Shown here: piece by piece, positions 1 through 10,615 of the stretch | Numbering within the stretch: position 1 is the first letter of the stretch | Layout: each line of letters opens with the position of its first letter | Source of the DNA: a virus | Direction: 5' to 3' (one strand) | DNA length: 64,000 nt | IMG/VR virus record: IMGVR_UViG_3300020421_002453 | Coordinates: 1-64,000 of that record | Notes under the pieces: generated by a model | The model's input: the letters and a program-made list of their open reading frames with translations, nothing else | Databases searched by the model: none | What the model was told of the DNA's origin: nothing | Made by a program: the position numbers and the translations under genes

Positions 1-1224
1 GAAGCTACAACATTTACTACAAATGCTGCCTTATCAGCTAGGAGTACTACCGTACCAGATACTGTAGGAGATTCTGATGGTATAACTTTTAATTACATGG
101 CATCTAATGCAACTAATAAACCAACTGGAACAGACCACTCATTAATGACAATGTCCTATGGGCCCAAATGGCAAACTCAAATAGCTCAAGATTGGCGTAA
201 TGATGGTCGTTTATATATTCGTGGTCAAAATGATGGAACTTGGAGTAGTTGGCACCAAGTATATTCTGAAGATGATACTATTCCAACAAGTAATACAGCT
301 GCAAAAGTAACTTCGATAGTTGCTGGAGCTGGTATTGATGTAAATTCAGCAACAGGAGCTGTTACGGTAACAGCAGAAACTGCAGCAACAAATAATCCAG
401 GAGTTGTTGAGTTGGCAACTACTTCCGAAACCACTACAGGTACAGATGCTACAAGAGCAGTAACACCTGATGGGTTGAAAGATGGTTATCAAGGTTCAAC
501 AAATGTAACCACATTAGGTACAATCGGAACTGGTACTTGGCAAGGTTCAGCAATATCAACAACATATATTTCAAATACAAGTGGAACAAACACAGGTAAC
601 TCACAAACTACTTGGAATTATACATTAAATGGTAGTAGTGGTGCTAGTGTTTCACATGGAGAAACAGTAAACATTGATGGTGGTAATGGTATTGAATTTT
701 CAGAAAATTCAGCAAGAGATTTTGAAATAAGTTTTGCTACACCAACTACATTAAGAAATACATCACTTAAAATTGGTAGAGATGCACATAACCAAATTCA
801 TTTCAATACCGATAATATGATTAAGGTAGAGGTTAATAATGTAGAAGATGAATTTAGATTTGCATCTGGTGGTGATTTCCATGCTGATGGTGATGTTATT
901 GCTTATTCATCCACAACGGCTTCTGATAAAAAATTAAAAAAGAATATCACAAAAACAAAATATGGATTATCTGAGGTATTAAAACTACAAGGTCGTGAAT
1001 TTGATTGGAAACAAAAAGATAGAGGACATGATGTTGGGTTTATTGCACAAGAAGTACAAGAAGTAATACCTGAATTAGTTAAAGAAGTAACATCTTTAAA
1101 AGATAAAGGAACACACTTGACTGTAAATTATGAAAAATTAGTTCCTGTATTAGTAGAATCTATTAAAGAATTGAAAGAAGAAATCAACGATATTAGAAAA
1201 AAATGTGATTGTTTGAACAAATAA
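1..1224 (+). CDS. Tail fibre protein with C-terminal peptidase S74 intramolecular chaperone (5'-partial)
   Basis: Frame is open from base 1. Thr/Gly/Ser-rich, with a fibre knob-like motif (YIRGQNDGTWSSW) and the S74 signature SDKKLKKNI...GFIAQEV...VNYEKLVPVLVESIKEL followed by a coiled coil. Confidence 0.85.
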   Translation, partial: EATTFTTNAALSARSTTVPDTVGDSDGITFNYMASNATNKPTGTDHSLMTMSYGPKWQTQIAQDWRNDGRLYIRGQNDGTWSSWHQVYSEDDTIPTSNTAAKVTSIVAGAGIDVNSATGAVTVTAETAATNNPGVVELATTSETTTGTDATRAVTPDGLKDGYQGSTNVTTLGTIGTGTWQGSAISTTYISNTSGTNTGNSQTTWNYTLNGSSGASVSHGETVNIDGGNGIEFSENSARDFEISFATPTTLRNTSLKIGRDAHNQIHFNTDNMIKVEVNNVEDEFRFASGGDFHADGDVIAYSSTTASDKKLKKNITKTKYGLSEVLKLQGREFDWKQKDRGHDVGFIAQEVQEVIPELVKEVTSLKDKGTHLTVNYEKLVPVLVESIKELKEEINDIRKKCDCLNK

Positions 1225-1229
1225 GTTTA

Positions 1230-1236
1230 TATTTAT
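1230..1236 (+). promoter_or_regulatory. Putative phage late-promoter core TATTTAT (first of several copies)
   Basis: The same heptamer occurs in intergenic DNA upstream of genes at 1230, 1621, 4272, 6117, 19150, 19725, 30607, 36792 and 40985. Confidence 0.55.
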
Positions 1237-1282
1237 ATATGATAATTAAATTAAGTTATAACAACATAAAGGAGTTATTGAA

Positions 1283-1576
1283 ATGGCAAAAGAAACAACA
1301 AATGAGATAAAGTTTACAGATGAAGAACTAACATCTCTTAGTGAGTTGAGAGAAACATATCAGGCAGTTCAAAATGACTTTGGTGTACTTAAAGTACAGA
1401 AAGTTTTATTGAATCAACAACTTGAAAATCTTGAGAAATCAGAAGGACAAGTTGAAACTAAGTATGTGGAAACCCAACAAGCCGAACAAGAACTTGTGAA
1501 ATCTCTTAATGAGAAGTATGGGCCAGGTAATCTTGACCCACAGACTGGAGTTTTCACACCAGTTAGTACAGATTAA
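1283..1576 (+). CDS. Hypothetical coiled-coil phage protein
   Basis: AAGGAG RBS; heptad-rich 97-aa ORF ending KYGPGNLDPQTGVFTP. Confidence 0.7.
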   Translation: MAKETTNEIKFTDEELTSLSELRETYQAVQNDFGVLKVQKVLLNQQLENLEKSEGQVETKYVETQQAEQELVKSLNEKYGPGNLDPQTGVFTPVSTD

Positions 1577-1691
1577 TAAAAAAAATGACCTATCCCATGT
1601 ATTTTGGGAAATGTAAATGATATTTATTACTCGAAGTATATCGTTCCGATATATAAGGAATTAATAACATTAGTTAATTAGGAGAATAACT

Positions 1692-4031
1692 ATGGCTGAA
1701 AGAATAGTAAGTCCTGGAGTTTTTACAAGGGAAAAAGACTTATCTTTCTTACCACAAGGTATAGCTGAAATTGGAGCAGCAATTATCGGTCCAACTAAAA
1801 AAGGACCGGCATTTGTTCCTACTCAAGTAACAAGTTTTGCTGAGTTTCAAAATATCTTTGGTGAGTTAGATACTCGTTTTTATGTACCTTATACAGTACA
1901 GGAATACATTAAAAATGCACCGACAGTAACAATTGTTCGTGTATTAGGTTTAGGTGGATATCAGTCAAGTACAGTTAGATTAGAAGTATCAGCTTCAGCA
2001 GGGAATGTTTATAAAACTGTTGCAGTTTTAAAACCATCAAGAAAATCACCAACATTAGATTTAGGCGGACCAACATCTGCTTCTGTCGATGCTAGTGCTG
2101 ATTGGAATGCTACTGAACTAACGATTGGTACTAATAGTGCGATTACCGTATCTTTTGATACAGGTTCTGCAAACTATATTACCAAAGTATTTGGAACAGA
2201 CCCACAGACCACAAATCATGATGTATATGTTTACAATCAATACAAACATACAACATCAACATCAGGTTTTTCTGCTACAAATGATGTGAGAATAGTAAGT
2301 GCATCGAGTGGTGAAGATTTTACACACGATTATGCAGTTGCTACAACACCTTACATTGTATCTCAGTTAAGTGCTGGAAGTAGAAAAAACCTATTTAAAG
2401 TTAATACTCGTTCACATGGAACAAATGTAAACGATGATTTCAAAATCGCTATTGCAGATTTAACTGCAGCTGGTTCAGTACCAGGTAGTGATTATGGTTC
2501 ATTTGCATTAAGAGTATTAAGAAACAATCCTGGTGAAAACAACGATGGTGAAGTTCTTGAAGAATTTCCAAATCTGAACTTTGACCCAGATTCAATAAAT
2601 TTTGCACCAAGAGCAATTGGTGATAGATATGTAACAATCGATACGGAAGGCAAACTTACCTACAATGGTGATTGGCCAAACAAATCTGTTCATGTTTATC
2701 TAAGTGATTATGAAGCAAATCTTGAGGGAATAGATGAATCTCTAATTCCACATGGTTTCGCAGCAGCATCTAATCCAATTCTTGGAACAACATCCGTACC
2801 AAGTGGTTCATTCAAGACGGGACAAACTACAACAAATGGTGTGTTTGACCAGAATGTATACTATGGTTGGGATTTCACAAACGAAGATAACAAACAATAT
2901 CTTGCTCCATTACCTGCAAGTTCAGGTACTGGTAATAATGCTGTATTCTCACTTGAGAATATGGATGGACATGCTGATGCAAGTTCAATAGGAGCTGATA
3001 CATACTCAGATGCTTCTGAGAAAATCACTCTTGCATTATCAGCAAAAGCACAGAGAAAGTTTGTTGTACCATTTCAAGGTGGATTCGATGGTGATAATCC
3101 AACAACCTTAAAGGCTACTGGTACTAATATTGCGGCAAACAATACTCAAGGATTCGATTGTAGTGGAGCTAACGCTAGTGGTTCTGTTGCTTTCAAGAGA
3201 GCTATTAATGCTATCTCAAATCCTGATGAGTTTGATATAAACTTATTAGTAACACCTGGTATTATACATGAGTACCATAATTCAGTTACGAATCATGCTA
3301 TCAGTAAAGTTGAAGCTAGAGCAGATGCTTTCTATGTAATGGATGGTTCAAGATGGGGTAGAAGTGTAACGAATACTATTTCAGATATTCAAACACTTGA
3401 TACCAATTATGCGGCTGTATATTATCCCTGGGTTAAAGTACTTGATTCAGTTAAAAATAAACCAATGTGGGTTCCACCATCAGTTGTGTTACCTGGCGTG
3501 ATTAGTTTCACAGACCAAGTAGCTCATGAGTGGTTCGCACCAGCTGGTTTAAATCGTGGTGGATTAAGTTCTGTGTTAGAAGCAAAAACAAGATTAACTC
3601 ATACTGAAAGAGATGACCTCTATGAAGCAAGAGTTAATCCAATTGCATCTTTCCCTGGACAAGGTGTTGTTGTCTTTGGACAAAAAACACTTCAAGGAAA
3701 ACCATCTGCACTTGATAGAATCAATGTAAGAAGACTATTAATTAGACTTCGTAAGTTCATTGCAAGTTCTTCAAGATACTTGGTATTCGAACAAAACACT
3801 GCTGCTACTCGTAACAGATTCTTAGGAATAGTTAATCCATTCTTAGAATCAGTACAATCGAATAGTGGTTTAAGTGCATTTAAAGTAGTAATGGATGATT
3901 CAAACAACACACCAGATGTTGTTGATAGAAATCAGTTAGTAGGACAGATATTTATCCAACCTACAAGAACTGCTGAGTTCATTGTACTTGACTTCGTAAT
4001 ACAACCAACAGGAGCAGCATTTCCTGAATAA
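1692..4031 (+). CDS. Contractile tail sheath protein (gp18-like)
   Basis: N-terminal SPGVFTREKDLS; C-terminal WFAPAGLNRG, GQKTLQ, DRINVRRL and PTRTAEFI sheath motifs. Confidence 0.96.
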   Translation: MAERIVSPGVFTREKDLSFLPQGIAEIGAAIIGPTKKGPAFVPTQVTSFAEFQNIFGELDTRFYVPYTVQEYIKNAPTVTIVRVLGLGGYQSSTVRLEVSASAGNVYKTVAVLKPSRKSPTLDLGGPTSASVDASADWNATELTIGTNSAITVSFDTGSANYITKVFGTDPQTTNHDVYVYNQYKHTTSTSGFSATNDVRIVSASSGEDFTHDYAVATTPYIVSQLSAGSRKNLFKVNTRSHGTNVNDDFKIAIADLTAAGSVPGSDYGSFALRVLRNNPGENNDGEVLEEFPNLNFDPDSINFAPRAIGDRYVTIDTEGKLTYNGDWPNKSVHVYLSDYEANLEGIDESLIPHGFAAASNPILGTTSVPSGSFKTGQTTTNGVFDQNVYYGWDFTNEDNKQYLAPLPASSGTGNNAVFSLENMDGHADASSIGADTYSDASEKITLALSAKAQRKFVVPFQGGFDGDNPTTLKATGTNIAANNTQGFDCSGANASGSVAFKRAINAISNPDEFDINLLVTPGIIHEYHNSVTNHAISKVEARADAFYVMDGSRWGRSVTNTISDIQTLDTNYAAVYYPWVKVLDSVKNKPMWVPPSVVLPGVISFTDQVAHEWFAPAGLNRGGLSSVLEAKTRLTHTERDDLYEARVNPIASFPGQGVVVFGQKTLQGKPSALDRINVRRLLIRLRKFIASSSRYLVFEQNTAATRNRFLGIVNPFLESVQSNSGLSAFKVVMDDSNNTPDVVDRNQLVGQIFIQPTRTAEFIVLDFVIQPTGAAFPE

Positions 4032-4057
4032 GTTTAATTTATAATTTGACTTATAAT

Positions 4058-4090
4058 AAAAAACCCCAGACAATTTGTTTGGGGTTTTTT
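4058..4090. terminator. Bidirectional intrinsic terminator after the sheath gene
   Basis: AAAAAACCCCAGACAA-T-TTGTTTGGGGTTTTTT: GC stem with an A-tract on one side and a T-tract on the other. Confidence 0.85.
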
Positions 4091-4150
4091 GTTTTTAGGA
4101 GGTAACTATGATAATTAATTCATTATAAGTCCTTTTTCTTATTTATCTTA
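4058..4150 (-). ncRNA. Candidate ~90-nt antisense sRNA carrying an anti-SD/anti-AUG seed
   Basis: Bounded by a minus-strand sigma70-type promoter and the bidirectional terminator. Contains CAUAGUUACCUCCUAA; its only SD-led ORF is ATG-AAT-TAA. Confidence 0.45.
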
Positions 4151-4156
4151 TATCTA

Positions 4157-4197
4157 AATATAACACTAAAACACTATACAAGTCAAGTCTTTTTTTT
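4157..4197 (-). promoter_or_regulatory. Sigma70-type (early) promoter on the minus strand
   Basis: Reverse complement reads AAAAAAAGAC-TTGACT-18 nt-TATATT with an extended TG. Nearly identical to the + strand promoter at 44034-44072. Confidence 0.7.
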
Positions 4198-4323
4198 AAA
4201 AACTTCTAAAAAACTTCTAAGAAGTAGGTAAAAAAGATACCTATGTAGATTCATTTTTTTTCAAAAATTGATATTTATTAATGTATTGAAAAGAGTAACG
4301 GCAAACTTAATAGGAGAAACATA

Positions 4324-4815
4324 ATGGCCGATATATTAACAACAGACGAAATATTTTTCACACCGTTTGAACCTAAAACGAAAAATCGTTTTGTGATGTA
4401 CATTGACGGAATACCATCATATTTTGTAAAAACTGCAAATAGACCTAATATTACATTTGAAGAGATTGAATTAAATCACATCAATGTTAAAAGATACCTA
4501 AAAGGTAAAGGAACTTGGGAAACATTAGAAATAACTTTATACGACCCTATTGTACCATCAGGTGCTCAGGCAGTAATGGAATGGGTAAGATTACACCACG
4601 AATCAGTAACAGGTCGTGATGGATACTCAGACTTCTACAAGAAAGAAATTACATTTAATATGTTAGGGCCAGTTGGTGATAAAGTTGAAGAGTGGATATT
4701 AAAAGGTGCATTTATTCAATCAGCAAATTTCAATGATTTAGATTTTGCTAATGGAACAGATGTTGCTGATATCACTTTAACACTTCGTTACGATTACGCA
4801 ATACTTTCATACTAA
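4324..4815 (+). CDS. Tail tube protein (gp19-like)
   Basis: Follows the sheath; contains FEPKTKNRF, W..LEITLYDPI, EEWILKGAF and ITLTLRYDYA tube motifs. Confidence 0.92.
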   Translation: MADILTTDEIFFTPFEPKTKNRFVMYIDGIPSYFVKTANRPNITFEEIELNHINVKRYLKGKGTWETLEITLYDPIVPSGAQAVMEWVRLHHESVTGRDGYSDFYKKEITFNMLGPVGDKVEEWILKGAFIQSANFNDLDFANGTDVADITLTLRYDYAILSY

Positions 4816-4854
4816 TAGTTCAATAACAGATTCTTAGGAATCACAGGAGGAGAC

Positions 4855-5082
4855 ATGAGCATGTGGGAAATTTTCAAAGATGACAATGAGTACAATGAGA
4901 AATCAATAATTGGTTTCGGTGCATTCACAATAATGGTTATTTTTGCAGGTGCAGATGTTGTTACTGGTATCATGGGTAAAGATTTAGTTATCAATGATGT
5001 AGTATACAATTCATTCCTATTCACTACTTTAGGTAGTTTCGGTATAGCTGGAGCAGAAAAGGTGTTGGGAAATAAAAAATAA
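4855..5082 (+). CDS. Small two-transmembrane protein (holin-like)
   Basis: GGAGG RBS; two hydrophobic segments and a basic C-terminus. Confidence 0.55.
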   Translation: MSMWEIFKDDNEYNEKSIIGFGAFTIMVIFAGADVVTGIMGKDLVINDVVYNSFLFTTLGSFGIAGAEKVLGNKK

Positions 5083-5157
5083 AATAAATTCGTTTTTACG
5101 AAAGTTACAACATAGTTATATACATATGGTTTTAAATTCAATTCATAGGAGAAAATA

Positions 5158-5934
5158 ATGGCTGATAACCAATACGCTTTCCCTACTGAAACACTATCTT
5201 TACCATCAAAGGGATTACTATATCCTGAAGATAGTCCATTAAGTAGTGGAACAATCGATGTCAAATATATGACAGCAAAAGAAGAAGACATTTTAACATC
5301 AACAAATCTAATCGAAAGAGGTACGGTGATTGATAAACTTTTAGAAAGTGTAATCGCAGACCCTAAAGTTAAGATAGATGATTTATTGATTGGTGATAAG
5401 AATGCTCTGATGTTAGGTGCGAGAGTGTTAGGATACGGAAAGAATTATGTAGTAAACATAACCGACCCTGATACATCGTTAGAGGTTGAACACACATTCG
5501 ACTTATCTGCCTTAAAGACTACGAAATTTGATGAAAAATTATTCAAATCAGGTAAGAATGAATTTGAATATACATTACCAAACACTAAACGAGTAATAAA
5601 GTTTAAACTATTAACTCATAAAGATGAGAGAGAAATAGATACAGAGTTAAAGGCACTTAAGAAACTTACAGAAGTTACTGGTGTTTCTAATGAATTAACC
5701 ACAAGGTTAAAGAAACAGATTATTGCTATCGATGGTGAAACTGATAGAAAAAAGATTGAACAATTTATCAACAATCAATTTCTTGCTCTTGATTCAAAAG
5801 AGTTCAGAAAGTATTATGATAGTCTTTCACCTGATATCGATTTTAGTGTTGAGTATACAAGTCAAATAGGAGAGCCCCATACGGTAGACATACCAATAGG
5901 GGTTAGGTTTTTTTGGCCTGACGCCAGAATATAA
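5158..5934 (+). CDS. Baseplate hub/tail assembly chaperone (gp26-like)
   Basis: LPSKGLLYP and MTAKEEDIL motifs, ends ...FFWP; lies between tube and tape measure genes. Confidence 0.8.
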   Translation: MADNQYAFPTETLSLPSKGLLYPEDSPLSSGTIDVKYMTAKEEDILTSTNLIERGTVIDKLLESVIADPKVKIDDLLIGDKNALMLGARVLGYGKNYVVNITDPDTSLEVEHTFDLSALKTTKFDEKLFKSGKNEFEYTLPNTKRVIKFKLLTHKDEREIDTELKALKKLTEVTGVSNELTTRLKKQIIAIDGETDRKKIEQFINNQFLALDSKEFRKYYDSLSPDIDFSVEYTSQIGEPHTVDIPIGVRFFWPDARI

Positions 5935-6100
5935 AAAAATTCTGCACGAGGAAATATTCAGTTTAATTAATTACGGAAATGGGTTTACTTTTTCCGATGC
6001 ATATTCTTTGCCAGTTCATTTGAGAAGATTCTATCTCAAACAATTAATCGATGCCAAGAAAAAAGAAAATGAGCGAATAGATAAGGCTCAAAAGAAATAA
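5915..6100 (+). CDS. gp51-like/tail chaperone extension, probably reached by a +1 frameshift from the upstream gene
   Basis: 61 codons (GLTPEYKKILHEEIFSLINYGNGFTFSDAYSLPVHLRRFYLKQL...) with no in-frame ATG, starting right after the T7 run at 5908-5914. Confidence 0.65.
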   Translation, partial: GLTPEYKKILHEEIFSLINYGNGFTFSDAYSLPVHLRRFYLKQLIDAKKKENERIDKAQKK

Positions 6101-6157
6101 AAATCTTAAAACTTGATATTTATTAATGATTAAGAAAGTCTATTCAGGAGTTTAAAA

Positions 6158-6364
6158 ATGGCAAAAAGAAAAATAACAGTTGAGGGTTTCTTTGATAAAA
6201 TAAGAAAACACCTACAAAAGAACCTTGATGATAGGTTAGCTAAAGAGTTAGATGACATATTAGATAATCCATCAAAAGATGTTCGTAAAGCCGCAGTTCA
6301 AGCCACAAAGGCAACTATTGAACTAAATAAAGCTATCGAAAGATATAAAAAATCACAAAAATAG
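6158..6364 (+). CDS. Hypothetical small protein
   Basis: AGGAG RBS and an upstream TATTTAT motif; 68 aa, predicted helical. Confidence 0.65.
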   Translation: MAKRKITVEGFFDKIRKHLQKNLDDRLAKELDDILDNPSKDVRKAAVQATKATIELNKAIERYKKSQK

Positions 6365-6411
6365 TATAATAAAAAGTGTTACATTTAATTTCATAAAGTA
6401 TGGATAACTAA

Positions 6412-8829
6412 ATGGCCGTGAACCTAAACGATATAAAGAAAGCTGCAAAAGCTCGTACTCAAGCATTTCAACAAGAAATGTCCGAAATCGAGAAGGTCAA
6501 ACTTGTCCGAAATCAAATAAAAGATATAGATAAAGAAATTGCTGCATTGGCAGTGGAGTATAATGGAGCAGTTGGTAAGGCTAAAGAAAAGGCATATGAA
6601 GCACTTAAGGCCAGAAAGAAAGAAAAGAGTGAGATAAAAGATACTATTACTATGTTATCTGATGAGGCAGAAACTTACGATACTATTACTAAGAGAATGG
6701 ATAAGATGAGTAAATCATCTCGTGATATTTTAGGATTTAGTGAAAAGAGAAGCTCGATAGAATTTGCGGCAGGTGAGGCCGCTAAGAAAGCAGCTCAAGG
6801 TAATGAAAAAGTTGCTGAGGTGATGAATGATATAATAGGAATTCAATTAGATTCATTAGATATATCATCACACAAAAATTTATTAGCTTATGATGAAGAT
6901 GCCGCTTTAGAAGCCATTCGTAATACAAGACAAGAAATAGCTATCTTAGAAGAAGATGGTGTTAAGGCTAATGAAGAAGAATTAAAGTTATTAAACGACC
7001 AAGTTAAGGCGGCTGAGAAATATGTTGATGTTGCTGGACAACTTTCTAAAGAAGCAAAAGAACAGAAAAATGCTTTCGATAAATTACACGAAAATAGTAT
7101 GGCCTTTGTAGACCAATTAGAGGGTGGAGTAGCAGCGGGTAAGGCTATGATAAAAGAATTAATCAAAAATCCATTAATGGCAATGGTTGCGGCAGCCGCA
7201 GCTCTTGGTAAAGCTATGGTGATGATTGCTGAACAATCAGCGGAGTTCAGAGATAATGTGGGATTATCTATAACACAATCTCAAAAGTTAGTACAGACTA
7301 TGAAGTTGGCTACACTTGAATCTAAATTATTAGGATATAATTTGGCGACTGGTGCTGGTGCACTTGTAGACCAATTTGGTAATTTAGACCAAGTAAGTTC
7401 AAAGAATTTAAAAACATTCGGTAGAATGGAAAAGATATTAGGAGTATCACAAGAGAGTTCAGCTACTTTATTCATGTCATTACAGAAAGTAGGTGGTGCA
7501 AGTGAAGAGGGTGCCATGGCACAGATGGCAAGTTTAAAAGCTTTAGGTGAGGCCAACAATATACCAATAGGTAAGTTGTTTGACGATATGGCTTCATCAT
7601 CAGAAGAGATTGCGGCATTCGGTGGAACTAATTTAACCAATATGAAACGAGCAGCAGTTGAAGCTCGTAGAATGGGAGTTAATTTAGGAACCACAATGAA
7701 GATTGCTGATTCCTTATTAGATTTTGAATCTTCTATCACAAACGAGATGGAAGCTTCTATGTTGATTGGTAAACAATTAAACTTCAACAATGCTAGAAGA
7801 TTAGCTCTTGAGGGTGATGTTGCAGGTGCCGCTAGAGATGTGGTGAAACAAATCGGTGGACAGGCTGAATTTAATAAATTAAATGTAATACAAAGAAGAA
7901 AACTTGCTGAATCAATTGGTGTATCAGTAGATGAATTAAGTAAGTTGGCTAGTGGTAAAGTTGAATTTAAACAACCAAAAGACCCTAATGCTCCATTGAT
8001 ATCTTCAAATGAAATGATAAGAGTTGCTATAGAAAAATTAATAATTGCAATGGGAGTTCTTGGTACAGCATTTCTTACATATGCCGTATTATCAAAATTT
8101 AATTTAGGTGGAAAGTTATTAGCTAAGTTAGGAATGGGTGGTGCAAAAGTTGGTGCTACAGCTATGAAAGGTGCTGGAGTAGCAGGTGATGTTGTTAAGG
8201 CTGGTAGTAAAATAGTCACTAAGGCTCCAGCAGGTGGAATGAAAGTTGCTGGTAAGTTTTACAAAGGTGGACAATTCATACCAAAGGCCGCTGCCGCAAC
8301 CGCCAAAACGGTTGATGTGGCAACTGATGTGGCTAAGACTGGTAGTAAAACCGCTGGTAAGGCGGCAGCCAAAACATTAGGAAAATCAGCAATTAAAAAG
8401 ATACCACTTCTTGGATTATTAGCAAGTGGAGTATTTGCCGCTGGTAGAGCTATGAAAGGGGATTTTGCTGGGGCTGGATTAGAACTTGCAAGTGGAGGTG
8501 CAAGTTTGTTACCAGGAGCTGGAACAGCCGCTTCGGTAGGAATAGATGCATTATTATTAGCTAGAGATTTAAAAAGTAAAGATACTGTAAAAGAACAAAG
8601 TGCTGAGATAAATGATTTACAATCACAATTAGACCAACAGGCTGAGATAAGTAATGCTGCATCTCAGATGGATGCTGAAACATCATTGTTTATGGAAATG
8701 TTGAAACAACAAGGATTAAGTGCTGAGGCTCAGAAAGAGTACAATGCAAAATCATTAGATTTATTACAAGAAGTAATTAACGAAGAAAAGGCTACAAGGA
8801 AGGCAGTAAACGAACTACCAGATGGTTAA
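6412..8829 (+). CDS. Tail tape measure protein
   Basis: 805 aa, Ala/Lys/Glu-rich coiled coils, hydrophobic segments and a Gly/Ala-rich C-terminal region (KKIPLLG); follows the chaperone genes. Confidence 0.8.
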   Translation: MAVNLNDIKKAAKARTQAFQQEMSEIEKVKLVRNQIKDIDKEIAALAVEYNGAVGKAKEKAYEALKARKKEKSEIKDTITMLSDEAETYDTITKRMDKMSKSSRDILGFSEKRSSIEFAAGEAAKKAAQGNEKVAEVMNDIIGIQLDSLDISSHKNLLAYDEDAALEAIRNTRQEIAILEEDGVKANEEELKLLNDQVKAAEKYVDVAGQLSKEAKEQKNAFDKLHENSMAFVDQLEGGVAAGKAMIKELIKNPLMAMVAAAAALGKAMVMIAEQSAEFRDNVGLSITQSQKLVQTMKLATLESKLLGYNLATGAGALVDQFGNLDQVSSKNLKTFGRMEKILGVSQESSATLFMSLQKVGGASEEGAMAQMASLKALGEANNIPIGKLFDDMASSSEEIAAFGGTNLTNMKRAAVEARRMGVNLGTTMKIADSLLDFESSITNEMEASMLIGKQLNFNNARRLALEGDVAGAARDVVKQIGGQAEFNKLNVIQRRKLAESIGVSVDELSKLASGKVEFKQPKDPNAPLISSNEMIRVAIEKLIIAMGVLGTAFLTYAVLSKFNLGGKLLAKLGMGGAKVGATAMKGAGVAGDVVKAGSKIVTKAPAGGMKVAGKFYKGGQFIPKAAAATAKTVDVATDVAKTGSKTAGKAAAKTLGKSAIKKIPLLGLLASGVFAAGRAMKGDFAGAGLELASGGASLLPGAGTAASVGIDALLLARDLKSKDTVKEQSAEINDLQSQLDQQAEISNAASQMDAETSLFMEMLKQQGLSAEAQKEYNAKSLDLLQEVINEEKATRKAVNELPDG

Positions 8830-8839
8830 GGGATAGATT

Positions 8840-10615
8840 ATGGCATTATTTGATAAAGTAAGTGATATAACAGAATTTAATTGGCAAAGAAAAGTCGGTA
8901 GAACTGATGAAACCAACCAAGATAATTTACCTGCAAACACTACTGCTAATAAAAAATTAGAAGATAGGTTGGGTGAAGTTGATGACCAGTACGAAAAATT
9001 TAATGGTAACAAAGGATTAAGAACAGGTAATCTTGGGTTCGATGAACCATTTATTGTAAAAGAAGTAGGTGATGGGTATGATAGTGCTAAGTTTGATGAT
9101 GGGATATTCAGAGGTGGATTAGCATTGAATGTAGTTAGAGCGGCTGAAGATGTTACAAGATTGGCCAAATGGACTCTAACATCTAAAGGAGTTCTTTTTA
9201 ATCTAAAACAATTTGCACTACAGGCTCAAAATCCAATAGGTGAAAATAGAATATTTAATCCAGGTGGTATATTTGGTTCTGCCATACCTGGTATACATTT
9301 ACCACGACACACTAACGGAACCTTTCTTGATTTCCAAGACCCACCAAAGTATCAAACTGATAAAGATGGTAACAATAGAAAGATGCCTGAAACTGATGAG
9401 GATGCAGGAATATTTGGAGCTATAGGTGGAGCATTAGGAATAGGTGGTGCGAGAAAAACAAATAGATTACTTCAATTATATGATTCAAGGATGATAAAGG
9501 GTGAGGGTTCAGCTGGTAGAAATCCAGTTATTGGTGCACTTGGATTAGGTAACCAAGAATTTGAAGACCCTAAACGAGTAGTTGATAGTACATTAGGGCC
9601 TTATGGTGGGCCTTTAGAGGAAGAAACCAATCAATTTGGTTTCAGAAATGATACTCATGATGAATTAAGAGATTTTAATGGAAGTGCTATAACTGATGGT
9701 AGAGGACAAAGTAATATTCCACAAGGTAGTTTAATTGACGCAATAAAGAATGGATATGAAACACAGGCAAATGCTGAAGTTGTAGGATTTCAAGGTCAGA
9801 ACGATGATGAAACTGCTCAAAATGCAGAAGATTATAATCTTGGTAAAGGAAAGGTTGCTTATCGAGGTGGTTTATATTCAGTAGGAGTATCAAATCAATT
9901 ACAAGTTCCTTATGGTGGTAAGTTTGATAATATTGGATTTGCAAATACCGTAAATAACAAATTACCAAAAGATTTTATTAAGTTTAGAATTAGAGATGCT
10001 GTGAATGGTAAGTGGATAGTATTTCCTGCTCATCTTGGAACAATCACAGATACAATTACTCCTGAATGGAGTACAGAAAGATATATCGGTAGACCTGATT
10101 CAGTACACTTGTATAGTGGTGCTTCTCGTAGTGTAAGTTTTGATTTTAAAGTTGCTGCTTTTAGTAAACAAGAAATACCAATCATTCAAGAAAAGATGAA
10201 TGCTTTAGTTGGATTGGCTTATCCAACATTTAAGAAGATACTTAGTGGGGATGATGAAGAAAGACCAGTAGCACCATATGTTTATTTAACTATTGGTGAT
10301 TTATTTAATAACACACCAGGTTACTTTAATAGTATCACAGTAACTATGGAAGAAAATTCTAATTGGGAAATTGATGAGGGATTACAAATACCACATTACT
10401 TCTCTGTATCAGTAGAGTTTGTTCATGTAGGTAAATACTTACCGAACACATTAGGTAAACACTATGATGTTCCACACCTAAAAGATTTTGGAGTGGGTAA
10501 TGGAAACAATGGTGTATTTGGAAAGAATGACCCAAGAGATGGAACTACAAGTAGACCTGATATGCAAAAAGCTACAGACCCTAAACATTGGAGTAAGGGA
10601 GTTTATACAGACTAA
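8840..10615 (+). CDS. Baseplate/tail tube initiator-like structural protein
   Basis: C-terminal tube-like domain (W....YIGRPD...Y.G.SR.VSFDF, LTIGDLF); baseplate context. Confidence 0.6.
   Translation: MALFDKVSDITEFNWQRKVGRTDETNQDNLPANTTANKKLEDRLGEVDDQYEKFNGNKGLRTGNLGFDEPFIVKEVGDGYDSAKFDDGIFRGGLALNVVRAAEDVTRLAKWTLTSKGVLFNLKQFALQAQNPIGENRIFNPGGIFGSAIPGIHLPRHTNGTFLDFQDPPKYQTDKDGNNRKMPETDEDAGIFGAIGGALGIGGARKTNRLLQLYDSRMIKGEGSAGRNPVIGALGLGNQEFEDPKRVVDSTLGPYGGPLEEETNQFGFRNDTHDELRDFNGSAITDGRGQSNIPQGSLIDAIKNGYETQANAEVVGFQGQNDDETAQNAEDYNLGKGKVAYRGGLYSVGVSNQLQVPYGGKFDNIGFANTVNNKLPKDFIKFRIRDAVNGKWIVFPAHLGTITDTITPEWSTERYIGRPDSVHLYSGASRSVSFDFKVAAFSKQEIPIIQEKMNALVGLAYPTFKKILSGDDEERPVAPYVYLTIGDLFNNTPGYFNSITVTMEENSNWEIDEGLQIPHYFSVSVEFVHVGKYLPNTLGKHYDVPHLKDFGVGNGNNGVFGKNDPRDGTTSRPDMQKATDPKHWSKGVYTD

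Follow-up and report, generated by a model that had tools for sequence, protein, structure and literature searches.

A putative cargo-less promoter cassette, facing backward between the tail sheath and tail tube genes of an uncultured marine T4-like myophage

Introduction

Why would a phage that reads nearly all of its genes in one direction keep, between two of its tail genes, a well-formed promoter that points the other way and has no real gene behind it? The question is raised by a 64,000-nucleotide stretch of viral DNA (the window, or WIN where loci are compared), which makes up the first 64 kb of the 73,096-base IMG/VR virus record IMGVR_UViG_3300020421_002453, a record with an estimated completeness of 34%. 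On the minus strand of the spacer between the tail sheath gene and the tail tube gene, a sigma-70-type promoter (4157-4197) is followed by a terminator (4058-4090), and the short unit delimited by the two is the subject of this paper. A first-pass annotation of the DNA had read it as the source of an early antisense small RNA (sRNA) that would cover the ribosome-binding site (RBS) of the sheath mRNA and hold back its translation. On balance, the evidence leans towards a plainer account, in which the unit is one of several copies of an early-promoter cassette, has no cargo and lies backward in the fast-changing spacer between the two tail genes, and in which its match to the sheath RBS is a generic one.

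One promoter among six

The minus-strand promoter is laid out as an A8 tract (4197-4190), GAC, a -35 element TTGACT (4186-4181), an 18-nucleotide spacer and a TGn-extended -10 element TATATT (4162-4157), with a predicted start near 4150; in a simple promoter scan, the stretch 4197-4157 agrees with the consensus at 10 of 12 positions and has the TG in addition. Outside a run of six free positions (N6), it differs by a single base from a paralogous plus-strand copy at 44034-44072 that drives the gene at 44098, as the first-pass annotation had described. The two prove to belong to a larger set, since the 73-kb contig holds six near-identical sigma-70-type promoters. An A-tract with GACTTGAC is common to five of them, at 4189 (minus strand) and at 44040, 70399, 70805 and 71433 (plus strand), and the sixth, at 66581 (plus strand), reads GCTTGAC. 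A TATATT -10 at 18-nucleotide spacing is shared by five of the six, that at 4189 included; the family scan found no -10 at this spacing for the copy at 70805. Genes follow all five plus-strand copies, four of which sit at 66-72 kb, among small genes beyond the window. The copy at 4189 is the sole family member on the minus strand of a contig in which simple script calling places 86 of 94 open reading frames (ORFs) on the plus strand, and the plus-strand context that had been reported for this region is therefore confirmed.

Membership in a family of six is what lifts the promoter match above chance. The 12-mer by itself is weak (two matches against 0.56 expected, with at least two in 11 of 100 shuffles), and a simple promoter scan of positions 1-9000 gave no excess of promoter-like sites (33 against 36.9 expected). 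In the T4 paradigm, the promoters used first are those of host sigma-70 type, and it is on the strength of this paradigm that the family is here taken as early. The minus promoter is a member of the phage's sigma-70-type promoter family, with early activity being presumed.

Transcription from it would be short. The structure at 4058-4090 is a two-way intrinsic terminator, A6-CCCC...GGGG-T6, with a U-run on each strand, which would end the sheath mRNA on the plus strand and a minus-strand RNA of about 95 nucleotides, which would run from near 4150 to near 4056. For the 98-nucleotide minus RNA, the folding energy is -20.2 kcal/mol (z = -3.63), a value equalled by none of 200 shuffles. The hairpin was not listed by a simple terminator scan, and the calls of both promoter and terminator rest on family analysis and folding, not on simple scans. 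The bidirectional terminator and the RNA of some 90 nucleotides without a real ORF, both proposed earlier, thus stand with little change. The sole ORF of the predicted RNA is the two-codon remnant ATG AAT TAA (4115-4123, minus strand), the place of which is taken by a two-codon ORF in several relatives too, and the transcribed leader that precedes it (4131-4156, minus strand), with its Shine-Dalgarno (SD)-like AAGGA, is the 5' module found in ORF-bearing cassettes of relatives.

Cargo in the relatives

The tube protein has 553 relatives in IMG/VR, from which the best 80 loci (87-99% identity) were retrieved; the spacer counts given here rest on the 78 loci that have both the sheath end and the tube start, L014 and L015 being without the sheath end. 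The two nearest relatives are L005 and L006. The spacer proves to be highly variable, from 169 to 1673 bp among the 78 loci, with 94 and 45 bp in distant cultured relatives. In 43 loci, it holds one to three backward copies of the same promoter family, and the backward promoter is absent from 35, one of which (L065) has a forward ORF of 145 amino acids (aa). Behind the promoter, 30 of the 78 loci carry one to four backward ORFs of 64-114 aa, and 13 (L005, L006, L007-L012, L013, L016, L062, L063 and L067) have promoter units without an ORF. The first-pass annotation itself had named full-length genes at this place in relatives, as the mark of a deletion scar, among the findings that would refute its sRNA, and the 30 loci provide them. 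The third codon position is the least conserved in seven pairwise comparisons of the backward ORFs, which are, to judge from their sequences, genuine genes. A PHROGs scan of nine representative ORFs (eight backward and the forward ORF of L065) gave phrog_10415 for one (E = 1.4e-35), a weak match for another (0.0057) and none for seven; cargo that is mostly unmatched is as expected for the ORFans of a hot spot.

Units with and without ORFs have in common a module of -10, leader, AAGGA and ATG. Counted from the -10, the AAGGA of the window lies at +22 and its ATG at +33, the same distances as in copies that bear ORFs. Two-codon ORFs (MN or MF) start at this ATG in the window, L005, L006, L066, L068 and L069, and the same ATG opens ORFs of 74-90 codons in other units. 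The comparison with L068 gives the likeness its most detailed form. The window matches L068 over 4154-4217, where the -10, -35, A-tract and backbone are 97% identical to the tube-proximal promoter of that locus, and again, in two pieces, over most of 4032-4103, which comprises the terminator and AGGAGGT. Between these matches lie 50 nucleotides in the window against 974 in L068, the latter made up of two ORFs, two more promoters and two non-coding units, with breakpoints at about 4154 and about 4103. In comparison with promoter-less spacers, everything from AGGAGGT to the A-tract is either there or missing as a whole, between the T-run of the terminator and the backbone that bears the AAAACTTC repeat.

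The cargo also has counterparts far from the tail genes. At the protein level, homologues of two of the nine cargo ORF types are encoded in the window's own contig, on the plus strand of the small-gene region. Beyond the window, positions 70798-71336 (plus strand) form an early cassette of two genes, which has a promoter copy of its own and is 82.7% identical over 539 nucleotides to the L044 spacer in reverse complement (E = 2e-159), a resemblance from which it follows that cassettes move between the early region and the sheath-tube spacer.

According to the cargo-less account, then, host RNA polymerase would fire at the minus promoter early in infection, and the resulting RNA of about 95 nucleotides would stop at the sheath terminator, used in its reverse orientation. 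Repeated promoter cassettes would have recombined, and the ORF would have been removed in the process or never delivered; the complementarity to the sheath would be a by-product of an RBS-like block (AGGAGGT-N5-ATG) that adjoins the terminator on the plus strand.

The match to the sheath start

That block, TTTTTAGGAGGTAACT (4092-4107), reads as a canonical SD on the plus strand and as an anti-SD 'seed', ACCUCCU, in the minus RNA. The target proposed for it is the SD and ATG of the sheath gene, TTAGGAGAATAACTATG (1678-1694, plus strand). The match is real, and covers SD and AUG as had been claimed: TTAGGAG-G-TAACTATG (4095-4110) stands against TTAGGAG-AA-TAACTATG (1678-1694), and just 5 of 300 shuffles score as well. 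The issue is whether it is specific. When a 35-nucleotide stretch around the seed was set against positions -25 to +12 of 86 plus-strand ORFs, the sheath came first by duplex energy (-18.0 kcal/mol) by near ties, with runners-up at -17.6, -17.0, -16.8 and -16.6 kcal/mol, that is 0.4-1.4 behind. With the whole RNA body against -40 to +20 of the start regions it came third of 82, and by direct sequence similarity fourth of 82, after the genes at 1283, 18681 and 57981.

The exact 17-mer TTTTTAGGAGGTAACTA points the same way. It occurs in 26 IMG/VR stretches. The contigs that carry L005 and L006 account for two; the remaining 24 come from unrelated phages, and in these the 17-mer directly precedes the start of a long reading frame, like an ordinary RBS, and several of these copies stand directly after a hairpin-like GC-rich stretch. 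Within the window phage, the pattern TAGGAGAA-TAA-N-ATG is common to late genes. The 'seed' is accordingly the complement of a generic, canonical strong RBS, and probably not one dedicated to silencing the sheath. A sheath-dedicated seed is unsupported because the 17-mer is a generic RBS and because the ranked targets nearly tie. With these near ties, the rank of fourth of 82 and an invariant block, neither outstanding complementarity nor covariation shows a specific target. Among WIN, L005 and L006, covariation could not have shown itself because the block is invariant and the sheath start does not differ between WIN and L005 where it would pair; the L006 contig is without the sheath start. 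The promoter, the terminator and the ORF-less unit of the earlier sRNA proposal are therefore upheld, and its dedicated sheath-RBS seed is not.

A possible function for the short RNA

Several observations nevertheless weigh against a mere leftover. The perfect TTGAC(T/A) and TATATT, at 17- or 18-nucleotide spacing, are kept in all 13 ORF-less relatives, the third codon positions of which are merely 68-80% identical; such intact promoters suggest that selection retains the promoter even when it has no cargo. The 16-nucleotide block is 16/16 identical in L005 and L006, next to 23 nucleotides (4108-4130) that are only 56-59% identical, in a comparison that comprises two close relatives and a block that also adjoins the terminator. 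In the narrow test, none of the other start regions among the 86 forms as good a duplex as that of the sheath. Lastly, the unit body of L007/L011 has a 14-of-15 match to positions -5 to +10 of its own sheath gene, and that of L013/L016 a 22-of-25 match to positions -41 to -16 of its own; these matches rank first or second of 82, are equalled in 0-4 of 300 shuffles, and represent just two or three independent lineages. They may derive from late-leader motifs shared between genes or from ectopic recombination; ACCTAAC is present in tube leaders too. The leader segment matched in L013/L016 recurs in L017 and, in a shortened form, in L019.

The same observations make up most of the case for a functional early sRNA, in which the anti-SD block (UAGUUACCUCCUAA), placed just before the terminator hairpin, would mask strong RBSs and delay translation, whether of phage late mRNAs, that of the sheath included, or of host mRNAs. 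Along with the intact promoters and the top duplex rank, such a reading draws on a block that is fully conserved against a neutral level of about 77%, and on the AGGAGGT that adjoins different terminators in several lineages (the L044, L055, L056, L062, L064, L066 and L068 types). It also draws on a T-to-C change in L005 and L006 that kills the plus-strand ATG and still allows, by G-U pairs, the minus RNA to pair with the sheath AUG. The same block, however, is found verbatim as an ordinary RBS in the 24 unrelated phage contigs, and other genes come so close to the sheath, or overtake it in the wider tests, that no target stands out. The unit is absent in 35 of 78 relatives, and the 24 of these with a readable sheath start have a similar sheath RBS. 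In the minimum-energy fold of the minus RNA, the UCCU of the seed is paired with the RNA's own AGGA, and the unit opens with the 5' module of a truncated gene cassette. Rfam offers no match either: with Rfam 15, no family reached its gathering threshold in the window region (best 30.9 bits against 59, all matches centred on the terminator), and six related loci gave nothing at E values of 0.1 or below. A functional sRNA is thus considered unlikely, and it retains a minor share of the probability because of the promoters kept intact in every ORF-less relative and the matches of L007/L011 and L013/L016 to their own sheath leaders.

Somewhat more doubtful is the extended form of this idea, by which the ORF-less units of this lineage, widespread in the sea, would constitute a family of early phage sRNAs, with a 3' anti-SD block beside a two-way terminator and a lineage-specific complementarity to their own sheath, serving to delay sheath translation. 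The pairing sites would then be the SD and AUG in the window, the AUG to +10 in L007/L011, and -41 to -16 in L013/L016. Such a family would give a T4-like lytic phage a base-pairing regulatory RNA, which would matter if borne out, in that no trans-acting sRNA had been characterised in T4 according to a 2010 review (PMC3014915).

Expression was approached through 22 listed sequencing runs, the best four RNA-library runs of which were used, in the form of assembled contigs. None of these contigs spans 4070-4312, and contigs cannot show strand, ends, or small or rare RNAs. One perfect contig (run X1) ends at 4069, inside the terminator, which is a weak hint, and another starts at 4313. The two ends fit separate mRNAs for sheath and tube and say nothing on a small early RNA.

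The plus strand of the unit

Read forwards, the same DNA holds an SD-led minigene of six codons, MIINSL (4108-4128, plus strand), which the first-pass annotation had pointed out. The ORF is present, in the fastest-changing part of the spacer, but its ATG is not conserved, being ACA in L005 and ACG in L006, and the peptide was dropped as a candidate product. It might still be that the plus strand is the working one, with an SD and tiny ORF that load ribosomes after the sheath terminator, as a minigene, as an element resembling an mRNA stabiliser, or as the stump of a forward gene. An SD and ATG at proper spacing do occur in five of seven variant types (WIN, L064/L066/L068, L055/L056, L044 and L062), the identical 17-mer is a real RBS elsewhere, and L065 has its forward ORF of 145 aa at this site. 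Yet the ATG is missing from precisely the two nearest relatives, the tiny ORFs vary in length and frame without a conserved peptide, and the block lies past the terminator and should therefore rarely be transcribed on the plus strand; a working plus strand is accordingly rated as very improbable. AGGAGG has only four plus-strand copies in the 73-kb contig (4097, 4845, 23277 and 27941), of which only that at 4845 serves a called gene, and the copy at 4097 (4097-4102) is the strongest SD-like site without a real gene in the contig.

A 10-bp inverted repeat (4048-57 and 4122-31) had been described as bracketing the element. It is present, but an arm of at least 10 appears in 54 of 300 shuffles of the spacer, which is the chance level, and the repeat is not kept in L005 or L006; it was dropped as the boundary of a mobile element.

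The spacer around the unit

Conservation across the spacer is uneven. Between the window and L005/L006, identity at third codon positions in the sheath and tube genes is 74-80%, and the leader (4131-4156), at 77%, is about at this neutral level. The terminator region (4053-4096) is 93-96% identical, the promoter region 85-90%, and the transcribed body between promoter and block 56-77%. Upstream of the promoter, a spacer backbone (4198-4265), which includes a AAAACTTC direct repeat and a small hairpin and is common to promoter-less relatives, is 90% identical. The direct repeat itself, AAAACTTC-N-AAAACTTC (4199-4222), is kept in every spacer type, promoter-less ones included; it sits between the backward promoter and a candidate late promoter, and could be a protein-binding site.

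The candidate late promoter motif of the tube gene is ATATTTATTA (4271-4280, plus strand). Four intergenic plus-strand copies are found (1620, 4271, 6116 and 19724), each 42-74 nucleotides before a gene; the genes in question are those of the sheath and the tube and two more. The core of the motif, TGATATTTATTA, is invariant in seven aligned spacers. The late promoter consensus of T4 is TATAAATA, from which ATATTTATTA differs. Taken together, the positions and conservation of the motif suggest that the tube gene probably has its own promoter downstream of the backward promoter.

This arrangement invites a role in cis, in which backward transcription and the two-way terminator would form an insulator, blocking or pairing with read-through from sheath to tube before the late promoter of the tube gene is switched on. 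The backward promoter and the late candidate at 4271 do face opposite ways on a shared, conserved backbone; promoter and terminator have changed less than the body transcribed between them, and the plus strand has 86 of the 94 called ORFs. Against this, 35 of 78 relatives do without the unit, the terminator alone should stop most read-through, and the overlap with a plus-strand read-through RNA would be less than 100 nucleotides. An insulator is, on these grounds, distinctly improbable.

At origins of the T4 oriF/oriG type, a transcript from a promoter is kept as an R-loop and primes DNA synthesis. The short minus transcript might likewise stay as an R-loop in its AT-rich surroundings and act as a replication origin, considering only that a strong promoter is followed here by about 50 nucleotides of very AT-rich DNA without an ORF. 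The site is absent in 35 of 78 relatives, however, the same promoters plainly drive genes elsewhere, and nothing points specifically to an origin; the idea comes close to being dismissed.

Non-coding elements in the spacers of relatives

Spacers of other loci hold non-coding elements of their own. One is a core of about 130 nucleotides (L068:1873-2002, minus strand) in the sheath-proximal backward unit, also present in the L044, L055, L056, L064, L066 and L072 types. About 65 of its nucleotides are nearly invariant, and a neighbouring hairpin has a compensatory change (CGGT/ACCG against CGAT/ATCG). It occurs in 22 of 80 loci, is absent from the window's contig and has no Rfam match; in L072 it lies within the 3' untranslated region of a backward ORF. 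Another is an ORF-less unit of about 190 nucleotides behind the tube-proximal promoter (L068:2632-2847, minus strand), also present in L018, L064, L066, L067 and L069, which ends in a T-arm-like hairpin (GTGGGG, a 7-nucleotide loop, CCCCAC) with no U-run after it. Neither ARAGORN nor Rfam returned anything for this hairpin, and a recognisable tRNA was rejected as its identity, the tRNA scan having found none in the window and 20 related loci. The same hairpin is the stem-loop that lies upstream of the next promoter in 7 of 47 promoter copies. In the spacers of L013, L016, L019 and L070, a hairpin with a conserved 21-nucleotide loop (TCTTACGATTACGATATTAAC on the plus strand) follows directly after the terminator, and its stem shows compensatory changes between the L013 and L070 types. 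A search of the window's contig for the conserved non-coding cores of the relatives gave a match at the terminator end only.

The phage and its tail genes

The source of the window is an uncultured marine T4-like myophage. The G+C content of the contig is 32%. Matches at the DNA level reach just 60-80% identity and involve the phage Mel-JY01, the Flavobacterium 'immuto' phages and cyanomyophages; a near-identity search of the phage collection gave no match to the window. The eight ORFs called on the minus strand are small (45-69 aa), and seven of them are without an SD. The tail sheath gene (1692-4031, plus strand) encodes 779 aa; in the phage collection, its product is most similar to the sheath protein of Microcystis phage Mel-JY01 (49.9% identity). 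The tail tube gene (4324-4815, plus strand) encodes 163 aa.

Implications and relation to known systems

If the unit is indeed a cargo-less cassette, its significance is mostly ordinary: the shuffling of repeated-promoter cassettes would extend from the coliphage and vibriophage relatives of T4 to an uncultured marine lineage, and would take place here backward, inside the tail-gene block and without the usual stem-loop. There is also a caution to be drawn, in that the complement of any strong RBS resembles a seed against other strong RBSs. If, on the other hand, the kept ORF-less promoters and the own-sheath matches reflect function, they would provide a testable candidate for a regulatory sRNA in T4-like phages.

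Backward transcription is familiar from T4, where early and middle transcription runs backward through regions of late genes and yields the so-called anti-late RNA. The unit of the window is comparable in having a promoter for the host polymerase that points against late genes. It differs in that the predicted minus RNA, with its 3' end at about 4056, would stop about 25 nucleotides short of the sheath stop codon, which ends at 4031; it would be antisense only to the 3' untranslated region and terminator of the sheath mRNA, and to no coding sequence.

The staphylococcal RNAs RsaE and RNAIII use C-rich anti-SD seeds to mask RBSs. As in these, a CCUCC motif is found in a short predicted RNA that has its own promoter and terminator hairpin. 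Unlike theirs, the motif of the window is partly paired within the RNA and is equally well explained as the complement of an RBS.

The bar minigenes of phage lambda consist of two codons, AUG AUA UAA. The window offers likewise tiny, SD-led ORFs, of which that on the plus strand starts with AUG AUA and that on the minus strand is the two-codon AUG AAU UAA. The plus-strand ORF is different in having six codons and in the loss of its ATG in L005 and L006.

The closest parallel is with the PeSLs (promoter-early stem-loops) of T4-type phages, described by Arbiol et al. 2010 (PMC2839356) and Comeau et al. 2014 (PMC4122927). These repeated elements consist, in order, of a stem-loop, an AT-rich tract, a sigma-70-like -35/-10 pair, an SD and a start codon (PMC4122927; PMC2839356). 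They cluster in hyperplastic regions, at the junctions of insertions, deletions and replacements. Recombination among them brings in ORFan cassettes or removes them, mini-circles being the excised form, and the crossovers have been located downstream of the -10, before the SD or ATG (PMC2839356; PMC4122927). In phage phi1, a single PeSL replaces the PeSL-flanked ORFan cassette of RB49 (PMC2839356; PMC4122927).

The window element shares most of this. It has a sigma-70-like -35/-10 pair after an AT-rich tract (A8-GAC-TTGACT-N18(TGn)-TATATT), and an SD and start codon at its 3' end, although the ORF is here of only two codons. It is multi-copy, with six copies in the 73-kb contig and 47 in the 24 distinct promoter-bearing spacers of relatives. 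It lies at indel junctions between relatives, in a hyperplastic spacer, with cargo elsewhere in the contig and with crossovers that likewise fall between the -10 and the SD or ATG, and it is the single leftover element where a relative has ORFan cargo. The differences are several. Within 75 nucleotides of the window copy, no upstream stem of at least five pairs with at least three G-C was found, and an upstream stem-loop was found for one of the six promoter copies of the contig and 7 of the 47 in relatives. The cassettes at this site run backward relative to nearly all genes; the unit lies inside the structural module, between genes 18 and 19, and borrows the sheath terminator in reverse; and ORF-less units with intact promoters recur in three lineages. 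With its stem-loop lacking, the window element is not a strict PeSL; it works like one.

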